NCBI GenBank assembly: GCA_035650735.1
Contig: DASRGZ010000152.1
Location: 1-38,255, forward strand
Source of the DNA: Chthonomonadaceae bacterium
GTDB lineage: Bacteria; Armatimonadota; Chthonomonadetes; Chthonomonadales; Chthonomonadaceae
Length of the DNA: 38,255 nt
Reading direction: 5' to 3'
How positions within the stretch are numbered: position 1 is the stretch's first letter; each line of letters begins with the position of its first letter. The translations under genes and the position numbers were made by a program. This document shows positions 2,623 through 6,944 of this stretch, in pieces. A model generated the notes under the pieces. It made no database searches, was not told the DNA's origin, and was given only the letters and a program-made list of their open reading frames with translations.

Positions 2623-3534
2623 TCAGCGGCCTCTTGCCGCCTTGATGGGGAGAGTAGGCGGCTGGCTCAGAAGCAGTTCGCTGACCGGCACGACCTGCGC
2701 GCCGATTTTGTCCAGATACTCAAAAATGCGCGGCAGGGCCTCCGCTGACCCCACGCAGGAGACGTGCATGAGCGTGATGTAGCCCGGCTTGACTTTGCGG
2801 CAGATGCGCTCGGCCACGAACGCCGCCGATTTGGGCTGGCCTACGCTATCGAGCGAGTCGAGCGTCCAGGCAATCGGCTGATAGCCCGCCTGTGCGACGA
2901 CGGCGCGGGTGCGCCTATCGCTGTCGCCGTAGGGAAACCGGAAGAGCGGCTTTGCGCCCCGTCCACACGCCTTGATAATGGCGGCCTCAGCCCGCTCCAG
3001 TTGGCTGCGTATTTCGGCGTCGCTCAGCCGGGTGAAATGCGGATGCGAATAGGAGTGGTTGCCCAGCTCCATGCCGGCGGCGGCGATGGCCTGGCACTCT
3101 TGCGGGAAGGTGGCGCAGAATTTGCCGGTGAGGAAGAAGGTCGCATGCGCCTTATGCTCGGCCAGTATCTTGAGGATGATCGGGACGGCCTTGGCGTCGC
3201 TGCCCGCATCAAACGTCAGCGCCACGCGCGGCGGCGCGCTCTGGCCTTCATAGAACTGGACTGGCGATGGCTTCCATTGCGCTAGAGGCGCGTTCGTGGG
3301 ATCAGGAGGCGCACTGCGGGGCGAATTCCGGGCGGAAACCTGCGGAGGGAACCGGGGCATAGCCTCTTTGTGGCCGCCCTGGCAGCCTGAGAGCGCCGCC
3401 AGAAGACCCAGCGACATTACGCAGGCGGCAATCCGCCGAACGCGAGCAAAGAAAGGGAGTCTGGCCGGCGCCAGGCTCCCCCTGTATGTGGCACGAATCA
3501 ACGCTGTCTTCCTGGTTATCAATTGCAATTCCAC
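2623..3534 (-). CDS. NodB-family polysaccharide deacetylase, probable lipoprotein; true start likely downstream of 3534
   Basis: ALTFDAG, ATFFLTG, GNHSYSHP, FRFPYG, LMH motifs; lipobox-like LAALSGC. Confidence 0.9.
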   Translation of the reverse strand: MELQLITRKTALIRATYRGSLAPARLPFFARVRRIAACVMSLGLLAALSGCQGGHKEAMPRFPPQVSARNSPRSAPPDPTNAPLAQWKPSPVQFYEGQSAPPRVALTFDAGSDAKAVPIILKILAEHKAHATFFLTGKFCATFPQECQAIAAAGMELGNHSYSHPHFTRLSDAEIRSQLERAEAAIIKACGRGAKPLFRFPYGDSDRRTRAVVAQAGYQPIAWTLDSLDSVGQPKSAAFVAERICRKVKPGYITLMHVSCVGSAEALPRIFEYLDKIGAQVVPVSELLLSQPPTLPIKAARGR

Positions 3535-3609
3535 GCTAGATTCGGTTAAAAGGGCAGTACCAAGCCAGCTTCCGCGTTAGTTTCAATTCCACGCTGGTTC
3601 GATCCAAAG
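3522..3609 (-). CRISPR. Orphan two-repeat CRISPR-like unit with a 27-nt spacer
   Basis: Minus strand: CTTTGGATCGAACCAGCGTGGAATTGAAAC (3609-3580), spacer TAACGCGGAAGCTGGCTTGGTACTGCC, degenerate copy CTTTTAACCGAATCTAGCGTGGAATTGCAAT (3552-3522). 30-nt length and ATTGAAAC 3' end are typical of Cas6-processed class 1 repeats. No cas genes in the window. Confidence 0.6.
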
Positions 3610-3625: not shown

Positions 3626-5044
3626 CTACGGAGTCTGCGTTACTTCCTGCGCGGCCTGGGCGATGGTCTTGCCGTTCAGGCGGGCGCGCAGGAACTGGAG
3701 GGCTTTCTGCAACTGGACATCGTTGGTCTTGTCCTTGAAATCCTCCTCTTTCCAGTTCTTCGATTGCTTGACCTCGATATCGGGCACGATGCCGCCGGAG
3801 CCAGGGATCGGATCGCCATCCTCGTCGCGCTTGCGGTTGATGTCGGTATGCTTGGGCGTATAGTACTTGGCCGTCGTCAGGCGCAGGGCCGAGTGATCTC
3901 CCAATTGGAACAGCGATTGCACCAGCCCCTTGCCGAAGGTGCGCTCGCCCATGAGCGTGCCCACGCCATAGTCCTTGATGGCCCCGGCGACGATCTCGGA
4001 AGCGGAGGCGCTCATGCCGTTGGTCAGGACCACCATCGGCACCTGCCGATGGGTAAATTGCGCCTCCTTCAGCCGCATCGCCTGCTCCTTGCCTGTGCCC
4101 TCCTTGATGTAGACGACCGCGTTATCCAGGTCTTTGTTCTGGTCAGGCGGAATGAAGAGGCTGGCGACATCAATGGCGACGGTCAGCAGCCCGCCGGGAT
4201 TGTAGCGCAGGTCGAAGACCAGCGCGCGCATTCCCTGGCTCTCCAGGCTGGCAAACGCCCGCTCCATCTGCTCAATGCTTTTCTCGTTAAAATCGGTCAG
4301 GACGATATGGCCGATCTTATTCTCTTTATCCTCCATCCAGTACTTTACGACGGGCGGTTCGACCAGGGCACGCCGGATGGTGAAGTCCAACGGCGTCTTG
4401 CCGCGCATCACGCCAAGCCGGACGTAGGTGCCGCTCTTGCCCTTGATCAGGTTGACGACCTCGTTGAGGTCCTTGCCGAGGATGGGCTTGCCGTTGACGC
4501 GCACGATCACGTCGTCGGCTTTGAGGCCCGCCTTTTCCGCCGGGCCGGTTTCGATGGGTCGGACGACCTTGATGGCGCCGTTATTCGGCGGTTCCTGTTG
4601 CAGCAGCGCGCCGATGCCTTCAAAATCACCGCGCGTCGTCGCCTGCATCTGGGACCAATCGTCGGGGTTGAGGAAGCTGGTGAACTGATCTTTGAGGGTA
4701 TCCAGCATCCCCTGGATCGCCTCGTAGGTAAGCTGGCGCGTCTTCTTGGCATCAACGGGCGGGCCGTAATAGTCCTTTTTGAGCAGGTTTAGCGCGGTTT
4801 TGTAATCTTCCAGCGGATCGCTATTCTGCCCAGTATAGTCGCTGCCTTTCTCGTCGCCCTCCTGCGGCGCGAGCCAGGCAGTGAGAACGCGCCGCGCCAT
4901 GCGGGCGCGTTCCAGGCTGTGATGGCCCCAGATCTCATCGCCCGCGTAGCCTACCAGCACCGAGGCGAGAACCAGCCCGACGACGGCAGGCACGACCAGC
5001 AGACGCGAGAGAAGCGACCGAAACCCTCTTGATGATAGACGCAT
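3626..5044 (-). CDS. ctpA: Carboxyl-terminal processing protease, S41A family with PDZ domain
   Basis: GIGA PDZ loop, DLRYNPGG, catalytic SASASE and TFGKG; N-terminal hydrophobic anchor. Confidence 0.93.
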   Translation of the reverse strand: MRLSSRGFRSLLSRLLVVPAVVGLVLASVLVGYAGDEIWGHHSLERARMARRVLTAWLAPQEGDEKGSDYTGQNSDPLEDYKTALNLLKKDYYGPPVDAKKTRQLTYEAIQGMLDTLKDQFTSFLNPDDWSQMQATTRGDFEGIGALLQQEPPNNGAIKVVRPIETGPAEKAGLKADDVIVRVNGKPILGKDLNEVVNLIKGKSGTYVRLGVMRGKTPLDFTIRRALVEPPVVKYWMEDKENKIGHIVLTDFNEKSIEQMERAFASLESQGMRALVFDLRYNPGGLLTVAIDVASLFIPPDQNKDLDNAVVYIKEGTGKEQAMRLKEAQFTHRQVPMVVLTNGMSASASEIVAGAIKDYGVGTLMGERTFGKGLVQSLFQLGDHSALRLTTAKYYTPKHTDINRKRDEDGDPIPGSGGIVPDIEVKQSKNWKEEDFKDKTNDVQLQKALQFLRARLNGKTIAQAAQEVTQTP

Positions 5045-5118
5045 AGATTTCCTGACCCTATTTCCCACTCAAGTCCGGCCTGAGTCCCCCAGAATCGGAC
5101 AATATAGATTTATAGATT

Positions 5119-6501
5119 TCACGCTGAAACGTTCAGGGCCGCCAGGGCACGCTCCAGGGCGGCATCGGTACCGGAGGCGCCCGACGTCACGGCAATATCC
5201 GGCGTGACCCCTTGCGACAGGTCGGCGCCCTCGGTAGTGAGCAGCCTGGCGGTCGCCATCTCTACGCCGGAACCGTCCCGCAAGACCGTGAAAAGCTGGA
5301 GGATCGCATCCCCGAACGTGCGCGTGCCGATCACCTTCGCCCGGCCCGCGTCGCGCAGCGCCGCCGCCACCAGTTCGGAGAGGTTCGCCGTTCCTGAATC
5401 GACCAGCACCGCCAGCGGCACCTCCAGCGGCGACTTGGCGGGCGTGACCGTCAGCGGCTCGCGCCGGTTGGGTTTGCGCTCGATGGCGGCGACCTCGCCG
5501 CCGCGCGTCAGGCGCGCGATGAGCTTGAGCGCCGAGTCATAGCCGTTGGCGTCGGCATCCGCGGCGGCGCGCACCCCGCCCGGATTATCCCGCAGATCCA
5601 CGATCAGGCCCTTTAGTTGGCCCTGCGCCTTGTCCAGCGCGCGCTGGAATTCCTCCGTCGCCTTCGCGTTAAACAGGCGCACGCGCAGGTAGCCGACCCG
5701 GTTTGCCAGCGTCCGAAACTCGACCGGATGGACCTCCGTGAGAGCGGTCGTCAGGTCTAGCTTGAGGGGCGCAGGCTGACCGGCGCGCTCCACGGTCAGT
5801 TGCAGCGGCTTGCCTTCGCCGGCGCTAAGCAGCGTGAGGGCCTTGATAAGGCTATACCCCTTCTTGAACTTATCGCGTGCCTGTTTGAACTGCTCCTGCT
5901 TGGCTGTATCGTCCTGATTTGACGCTCGGATTCGGCCTGCATCCACCGCAATAGAATAGGCGATAATCCAGTGCCCATTGATTTCGGTGATATGATCTCC
6001 CGGCTGCAAACCGGCCTTTTCCGCCGGGCTGCTCGGCATGGTATCTACAACAGTCAGGTAGCGGTATTCTACATCGTCTTTTTTCGTTCTGGTAACGGTC
6101 AGCGCCGCGCCGATACCGTGGAAGTGCCCCGCCAGCGCCTCCTGCCGCGCCTGCCGCAGGGGCGGCTCCAGGAAGTTCGTCTTCGGGTCGTCCAGCGAGG
6201 CGAACATGCGGGCCAGCGCGCCGTGGCTCAACTGGGACTCGTTATTGATGCCCTCGACGTAGTCGCGCTGCACGTAGTCGAGCACGGTGGCGAAGACCTC
6301 GGAGGGGGAAGCGTCGGCGTCCTGGCCGTCGTCATCCGAGCTGCCGATGGCTCCGCCGCTGGAAGAGGCCGAAAGCAGGAAGGGCCGGATATGCTTATGT
6401 AAAGGCAGTGCATGACGCAGTTGACGCCCCCCATAAAAGCCGAGGGACACCGCCCCGCCCAGAAACATCACTATCAACAGTTGCTTGGCAGACCGAATCA
6501 C
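5119..6501 (-). CDS. S41/CtpA-like PDZ protein lacking the catalytic Ser/Lys
   Basis: GIGA and DLRDNPGG are present, but TANLSE replaces SASASE and TFGDA replaces TFGKG. GTG at 6501 is preceded by GGAGGA. Confidence 0.88.
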   Translation of the reverse strand: MIRSAKQLLIVMFLGGAVSLGFYGGRQLRHALPLHKHIRPFLLSASSSGGAIGSSDDDGQDADASPSEVFATVLDYVQRDYVEGINNESQLSHGALARMFASLDDPKTNFLEPPLRQARQEALAGHFHGIGAALTVTRTKKDDVEYRYLTVVDTMPSSPAEKAGLQPGDHITEINGHWIIAYSIAVDAGRIRASNQDDTAKQEQFKQARDKFKKGYSLIKALTLLSAGEGKPLQLTVERAGQPAPLKLDLTTALTEVHPVEFRTLANRVGYLRVRLFNAKATEEFQRALDKAQGQLKGLIVDLRDNPGGVRAAADADANGYDSALKLIARLTRGGEVAAIERKPNRREPLTVTPAKSPLEVPLAVLVDSGTANLSELVAAALRDAGRAKVIGTRTFGDAILQLFTVLRDGSGVEMATARLLTTEGADLSQGVTPDIAVTSGASGTDAALERALAALNVSA

Positions 6502-6944
6502 CGTTCTCCTCCACACCGGACACGCCCTATCAACGACGACAGCCGGCCCAGCGCTCGGTGCGCCCGCCGGAAAGCCGCCACTTGTCTCTATGTTTAAGTG
6601 GTTGGGACTAAGGAATAGTTCCCGATTTTGCGGCCCGCTGTGAGATTTCCTGTAGAGGGTGGGGCCTGGCCGCGAAACTTCTTCCAGTAAACAGGATAAC
6701 ACAACGCCCCGCAAAAGTCAACGCAGTCGGCAGCAGGAGTATCCTAACGGTAGCCGGGTACGGCTGTATGCATCCCTCATGAGAGGACAGGGAGTTGGAC
6801 TACCAGGCGATGTGCCTCGCGGCGTTCCCACGCAGCGAGACGGGCCAGCAGCCTCCTCACGCGGCCCGTGACGTCCCCTGGCTGCTGGCCCAGAGCAGAG
6901 GAGAGAATGGCAAGCGGGGATTTAGCGGGCAAATCGAGAAGATA

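Follow-up and report, generated by a model that had tools for sequence, protein, structure and literature searches.

The window analysed here, i.e., the whole stretch of 38,255 nt, is contig C152 of a 6.5-Mb assembly with 63% GC, hereafter the host genome. On its minus strand ctpA, which encodes an S41 peptidase with a PDZ domain (3626-5068), lies between a second S41 peptidase gene (5119-6714), probably the first gene of the operon, and a downstream polysaccharide deacetylase gene (2623-3501); ctpA and the deacetylase were assigned by Pfam. The gap between these two genes holds, on the same strand, a small CRISPR-like unit consisting of a near-intact repeat of 30 nt ending ATTGAAAC (R1, 3580-3609), a 27-nt insert in the place of a spacer (3553-3579) and a degenerate repeat of 31 nt (R2, 3522-3552). 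R1 is separated from the ctpA stop (3626-3628) by 16 nt. A sequence-only reading of the window had described a repeat, a 27-nt insert and a degenerate second repeat on the ctpA strand at this distance from the stop, and all of its coordinates hold. It had also reported no cas gene in the window, in agreement with a Pfam comparison that returned no cas family in 24 of the 138 listed open reading frames; nor did the window have any Rfam match.

A consensus scan found no minus-strand promoter-like site between 2571 and 6066 and, because none lies near the unit, the unit would be transcribed together with the rest of the ctpA operon. A weak promoter-like site (6693-6721) precedes the second S41 peptidase gene. 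The deacetylase likely starts at a TTG at 3501, 20 nt past R2 and behind an AGGAAG motif at 3508-3513; the GTG start given by the ORF finder (3534) falls within R2. A 13-bp hairpin with a U-rich tail (3452-3483, minus strand) may act as a terminator, or may belong to the coding sequence should the TTG start be correct, and was not listed by the terminator scan. Further downstream, a strong minus-strand promoter-like site (11/12) at 2542-2571 precedes a BTAD regulator gene (211-2412). The order of ctpA and the deacetylase gene is kept in the five relatives whose compared locus had both genes. The ctpA identity used here is 83%.

A separate 86-kb metagenome contig matches the region with 4372 of 4372 nt identical, and the unit is covered without differences by contigs from three runs (X6, X7 and X10), where X6 is possibly the source of the window and the pieces from X7 and X10 are 151 nt each. 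Since the identical 86-kb contig and the matching contigs of three runs agree, an assembly artefact is unlikely. Across the four DNA runs compared over the region the pieces were identical, with no contig joining across the unit.

CRISPR repeats of the unit and the locus on contig C93

The host genome has a type I-B/III-A cas locus on contig C93, next to an array in which a 29-nt repeat occurs 80 times and the 79 spacers measure 32-41 nt, most of them 36-38 nt. The operon preceding the array comprises WYL, cas6b, cas8b, cas7 (Cst2/DevR), cas5, cas3, cas4, cas10, csm2, csm3, csm4, a CARF effector gene, cas1 and cas2. Cas6b has an open full-length frame of 257 aa and is the sole Cas6 C-terminal match in the assembly. 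The sequence-only reading had hinged on a related array or a cas6 gene in the genome, and both a cognate array and cas6b are present; the comparison with full-array repeats that it had called for identifies the repeat of the unit as that of the 80-repeat array.

The III-A module (L001:9435-14258, G000:C93) lies inside the I-B operon, between cas4 and cas1. Its Cas10, of 532 aa, covers profile positions 231-753 only, and csm5 was not found among the scanned open reading frames of the module. Just beyond the trailer end of the array lies a transposase and ATPase gene pair that we take to be IS21-like (L001:337-2393, G000:C93).

The similarity of R1 and R2 to the array repeat exceeds chance: in local alignments to it R1 scored 50 and R2 38, and the reversed-genome control did not exceed 28. 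R1 and the host array repeat differ at 3 of 29 positions, and the final 24 nt of R1, including the 8-nt handle, are exactly those of the array repeat. The arrays of relatives carry a 30-nt form of the repeat. Relative to this form, R1 is changed at 2 of 30 positions (nt 5-6), and R2 has four substitutions and an insertion. The opening 7 nt of R2 are unchanged, two changes fall within its final 8 nt, and its small stem is preserved through a G-U pair. The two repeats have no derived change in common. With no change in the final 24 nt of R1 versus five in the 31 nt of R2 (p ~0.015), the conservation of R1 against the decay of R2 hints at selection rather than mere tolerance. Folding gave no stable structure for R1, R2, the whole unit or the array repeat (z -0.7 to 0.8), and the small stem is not predicted to form in its sequence context, as is also the case for the array repeats.

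The insert and the array leader

That the insert is a diverged copy of the end of the host array leader is well supported. Positions 3553-3575 match the final 23 nt of the leader at 18 of 23 positions in an ungapped alignment, and all five differences are transitions; the first four of the 27 insert bases match at one position. The copy and the true leader end both directly abut a repeat, i.e., R2 stands in the same register to the copy as the first array repeat does to the leader. Besides the leader itself, the insert end is the sole 23-mer in the genome that matches the leader end at 18 or more positions (24 others reach 17), none of 100,000 shuffles reached 17, and the 79 array spacers gave at most 11 matches in the same leader comparison. 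The likeness first arose from a control alignment of the insert to gaps of the cas locus. The leader motif is exact at both host sites, and the 67 relatives gave 7 three-mismatch matches versus 14 in the control; since the motif is private to the host genome, the piece of leader with R2 was likely copied within the host lineage. Across the genome contig collection, a 24-nt leader pattern had no exact match, and a 19-nt pattern had 16 matches, none of them adjoining a repeat.

The insert of 27 nt falls outside the range of the host array spacers, and the unit departs from a canonical array in having 16 nt to the ctpA stop in place of a leader, a short insert, and an insert of non-foreign origin. 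The sequence-only reading had stated that there is no leader, which is right for the DNA upstream of R1 and wrong for the insert, which itself copies the leader 3' end. Its interpretation is partly supported. The branch of an array relic requires revision, since what lies between the repeats is leader DNA rather than foreign sequence taken up as a spacer. With a leader end in register with a repeat outside the array, the unit can be placed in a less strictly defined class, that of ectopic leader-repeat copies. A literature search over the titles and abstract openings of mainly open-access papers turned up no account of an ectopic mini-array with a leader-derived insert.

Another branch, a regulatory guide, is weakened. 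The longest seed run of the insert in the genome is 13, which is at the level of shuffles (12-18 in 30 shuffles; 12-19 for 40 array spacers), and the leader, the sole real homolog, is mismatched at seed positions 1, 3 and 4. The proposed search of the insert against the genome revealed no promoter target with both seed and PAM, and the proposed search of phages, extended to plasmids, gave best BLAST E values of 0.9 and 3. One viral contig has 21 contiguous insert bases (22/27 overall). We judged it a chance match and rejected it as the source of the insert: it misses five of the first six insert positions, its DNA has 51% GC versus 63% in the host, none of 79 host spacers hits this virus (best E 0.85), and by a rough estimate a single 20-mer match is close to what two scans of 2.9 million contigs would give by chance. 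A self-targeting origin was likewise rejected, the flanks of nine candidate sites matching no array spacer. No array spacer had a full genomic target; a search of array spacers for a PAM gave one spacer overlap, and two array spacers had no match in viral contigs.

Two classes of known element invite comparison. The crlRNA mini-arrays CreA/CreR, as the accessible parts of the sources describe them, lie in or beside cas loci and act by seed pairing with a PAM-flanked promoter (10.1101/2023.03.03.530964; 10.1101/2023.03.10.532045; PMC9458426). On that description the unit resembles them in having two degenerate repeats of the host system, the upstream one near-intact and the downstream one degraded, with a short insert within 20-60 bp, the same asymmetry of handle conservation and a type I-B host. 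Unlike CreA/CreR, it lies on C152 among housekeeping-type genes with the cas locus on C93, its insert is leader DNA with a mismatched seed, and no seed-contiguous match to a PAM-flanked promoter was found. Racrs are single repeats on phages and plasmids, often with their own promoter, according to the accessible text of PMC10651486. As with these solitary repeat units, the unit is a repeat copy away from cas genes that matches the CRISPR subtype of the host. An inhibitory Racr, which the sequence-only reading had also considered, is nevertheless unlikely: unlike the Racrs of that text, the unit is chromosomal and flanked by housekeeping-type genes, its two repeats would lead SRUFinder to discard it, and it shows no match to a promoter of its own.

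Ectopic repeats in the host genome and its relatives

The unit is one of eight ectopic sites of the I-B repeat in the host genome, none of which falls in a gene called by a simple codon-based caller. Five lie in co-directional gaps, all in the sense orientation, two in divergent gaps pointing at the nearer gene, and one at a contig edge. The neighbours of the other sites are unrelated (mtnP-mtnA, an RraA-like gene, an ABC permease gene and a DNA methyltransferase gene). A second repeat family of 37 nt, presumably I-C-like and recognised from the array of a relative, has 19 matches (reversed control, 0), 16 of them intergenic: 10 co-directional and sense, none antisense, 3 convergent and 3 divergent. 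One further host candidate, on C182, and the three weakest matches of the second family lie in called genes and were dropped as chance. Pooled over both families, all 15 co-directional sites are sense (p = 3e-5), with one gap holding repeats of both. As no array of the 37-nt family was found in the assembly, the sense bias needs no matching array.

At the seven other I-B sites there is neither a leader copy nor a target-site duplication, and the upstream leader-likeness of 25 lone repeats is not significantly higher than that of array spacers (p = 0.07). The absence of leader copies at these seven sites, together with this comparison, argues against junction copying as the general source of lone repeats. 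Among minor features, many of the lone 37-nt repeats (16 intergenic sites, G000) are followed by runs of CAAA units. The gap holding both families (L009:5762-5892, G000:C89) has a near-perfect promoter before and a terminator-like hairpin after the I-B and 37-nt repeats, and behind one lone repeat (L007:5183-5226, G000:C19) the last 15 nt of this repeat are duplicated in tandem, with a similar partial duplication in G019 (L054).

The repeat family is present in 30 of 68 genomes of the order, and lone repeats and two-repeat units in gaps away from cas genes recur among the relatives. Read by eye, 5 of 7 callable co-directional sites in relatives are sense and 2 antisense. Dropped before this count were array edges (G024, G009, G063:C55), a site within a gene (G006), sites linked to cas or WYL genes (G015, G051, G005), divergent, convergent, contig-edge or unclear sites (G010, G014, two in G019, G020, G025:C34, G030:C36, G064 and two of G052) and orthologous duplicates (G030:C12, G001); 185 matches of G012 and the site G025:C51:9281 are also outside it. 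In two relatives a leader of about 160-170 nt lies with its first repeat at an ectopic position (187 of 202 nt in G020, 169 of 193 nt in G030), from which it follows that copies of the junction spread among these relatives.

A decayed repeat also occupies the ctpA-deacetylase gap of the sister species G001, on the same strand and 21/30 identical to the 30-nt form, with the 8-nt handle lost and the stem kept. It scores 19.6 bits, a score that a reversed 13-Mb control reaches about twice, and it is the only one of 29 loci of relatives to exceed 12 bits in the gap. Orthology of the flanks of this repeat and the unit was not significant (p = 0.10). The G001 genome (89% complete) has no array of the I-B repeat family and no Cas6 match, and its orthologous mtnP-mtnA and ABC-permease gaps are without a repeat. 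For the remaining sites of the host genome, G001 offered no syntenic match for C89 and C166 and a contig end at C19, with C121 and C17 outside the comparison.

Several loci in the relatives show related arrangements. At the galT junction, G030 has a leader, repeat, spacer and decayed repeat (G030:C12, L071:3000-3400), and G037 a repeat, spacer, decayed repeat, methyltransferase gene and further repeat (G037:C76, L069:2184-3240). The latter is a gene cassette between CRISPR repeats, and G037 and G030 are congeneric species. Both also have two-repeat units whose inserts (L070:3014-3120, L071:2990-3046) contain tandem CTTTGCGT units, like host REP-type repeats, which suggests spacers taken from self DNA. 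In G052:C289 three lone repeats on one strand lie 1404 and 516 nt apart (L068:3007-4960), and the 409-aa gene between the first two has no Pfam match. An identical two-repeat unit in G051 and G005 (L066:3050-3150, L067:1667-1765) overlaps the stop of a shortened WYL gene, and the array of G025:C51 (L040) has inserts of about 870, 1750 and 1770 nt between repeats.

Origin and activity of the unit

The comparisons above establish the repeat family of the unit, the leader origin of its insert, its orientation and the presence of a cognate cas locus. Our preferred reading, which we hold with about even confidence, is that the unit is a misplaced fragment of the host CRISPR locus and that a predicted Cas6b cut at R1 is a probable tolerated by-product, the unit being no working guide. 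In the sequence of events that we envisage, a lone repeat would first have lain in the ctpA-deacetylase gap, and DNA of a leader-repeat junction would later have joined it. This might have happened by recombination between homologous repeats, with most of the leader being lost later. Alternatively, Cas1-Cas2 may have integrated a piece of 36-38 nt reaching from 27 nt before the junction to 9-11 nt into the first repeat, and slippage between two tandem repeat starts would then have removed 9-11 nt to leave a repeat, 27 nt and a repeat. The CCA that precedes the start point of such a piece in the leader would fit published I-B PAMs. A spacer gained in this way would target the chromosome, and its three seed mismatches could represent its escape.

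Two known processes come close to such an origin. Isolated or satellite arrays can arise by leader duplication, and the unit shares with the leader-duplication arrays of G020 and G030 an ectopic leader end joined in register to a repeat. Unlike these, it keeps 23-27 nt of leader, has its second repeat upstream of the leader piece, and no promoter-like site was found in that piece. In the neo-CRISPRs reportedly described by Nivala et al. in 2018, which are said to arise by off-target Cas1-Cas2 integration, the "repeats" arise by duplication of local DNA and are identical when formed. The unit is similar in being a repeat-insert-repeat structure away from the array in a genome with Cas1-Cas2, and differs in that its repeats are true array repeats without a common derived change and its insert is shorter than any array spacer.

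Read-through from ctpA would transcribe the unit. Cas6 leaves an 8-nt handle, according to the accessible text of PMC9458426, and on this basis Cas6b is predicted to cut R1 between 3588 and 3587, which would separate the two cistrons, and R2, more weakly, between 3530 and 3529, which would free a crRNA-like RNA of 58 nt. With its mismatched seed, this RNA is not expected to load onto the leader. Cutting of R1 itself could be weak, since Cas6 of the Pyrococcus type binds repeat nt 2-8 (same text) and the changes at nt 5-6 of R1 fall in this region. Cas6 cutting of the operon mRNA, which the sequence-only reading had proposed as well, is thus far plausible and would fit the genome-wide sense orientation.

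The misplaced-fragment reading has consequences for surveys of mini-arrays and crlRNAs, which would class the unit as a regulatory or relic mini-CRISPR despite its insert of leader DNA. The unit records the spread of leader-repeat junction pieces through the chromosome and, with a Cas6 gene of the I-B repeat family in the same genome, natural Cas6 processing of host mRNAs is testable at eight sites.

Alternatively, selection may have maintained the repeats in host mRNAs as sites of Cas6 processing, which we consider unlikely. A cut in R1 or R2 would give the deacetylase mRNA a 5'-OH end 28-86 nt before its start and uncouple it from ctpA; engineered Csy4 insulators uncouple cistrons by such cuts. 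The sense orientation of all 15 co-directional sites is consistent with selection, as are the unchanged core and handle of R1, the preserved stem of R2 and of the G001 repeat, and the presence of a cognate Cas6b, and a repeat is present in the ctpA-deacetylase gap of two congeneric species, as it is at the galT junction of two species from another genus. However, the host sites adjoin unrelated genes, the mtnP-mtnA and ABC-permease gaps of G001 are without the repeat, no array of the second sense-facing family was found in the assembly, and the purging of antisense copies or an insertion bias would explain the orientation equally well.

It is rather improbable, in our estimation, that the 58-nt product acts in trans like a crRNA, directing Cascade (or Csm, on antisense RNA) to the array leader and so dampening array transcription or spacer uptake. 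The asymmetry is CreA-like, with R1 keeping the 8-nt handle and R2 its own 5' part (PMC9458426, accessible text), the guide is short, and its best genomic match is the leader, after a CCA fitting the I-B PAMs published in the accessible text of PMC13199841 (YYD, YCN and CCN, which may differ from those of the host system). Such PAMs nevertheless make up 22% of host trinucleotides, and three seed positions are mismatched where, according to the same text, one mismatch at positions 1-5 or 7 leaves little or no binding in Thermotoga I-B; moreover, the unit is distant from the cas locus, and the 67 relatives show no conservation of it. Were such a leader-directed RNA active, it would be a case of CRISPR self-control aimed at the array leader, not at a cas promoter. 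We give similarly little credence to a broader version, in which repeats of this lineage would have spread into host mRNAs, where they serve as natural sites of Cas6 cleavage, and each ctpA-deacetylase transcript would release the leader-copied RNA, tying an envelope operon to the control of array expression or spacer uptake.

Very improbable is a unit that represents the last remnant of an ordinary satellite array with a shortened viral spacer as its insert: satellite arrays decaying in place do occur in relatives and the viral contig holds 21 contiguous insert bases, but its misses in the first insert positions and the lack of host spacers against the virus speak against it, and the leader comparison largely refutes a reading that leaves the in-register leader match unexplained.

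We consider it just as improbable that R1 is a "spacer" inserted by off-target Cas1-Cas2, with the ctpA 3' end and the insert as the duplicated target site: the 40 nt on either side of R1 share a 6-mer and a 7-mer (8/1000 shuffles) and R1 with 4 upstream bases makes 34 nt, within the spacer size range, but the middle of the supposed duplication is mismatched, the signal is marginal after testing eight sites, the other seven show no duplication, and R2 with the leader copy would need a separate origin. The misplaced-fragment model does not account for the likeness of the insert to the ctpA 3' end, in which the shared 6-mer and 7-mer are nearly equally spaced, nor for its likeness to the gap between cas1 and cas2. 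The start of this gap (L001:8225-8252, G000:C93), which is not significantly like the leader end itself, resembles the insert with 21 matches and two gaps, a likeness reached by 7 of 5000 shuffles against four gaps and by 28 of 400 against the whole locus.
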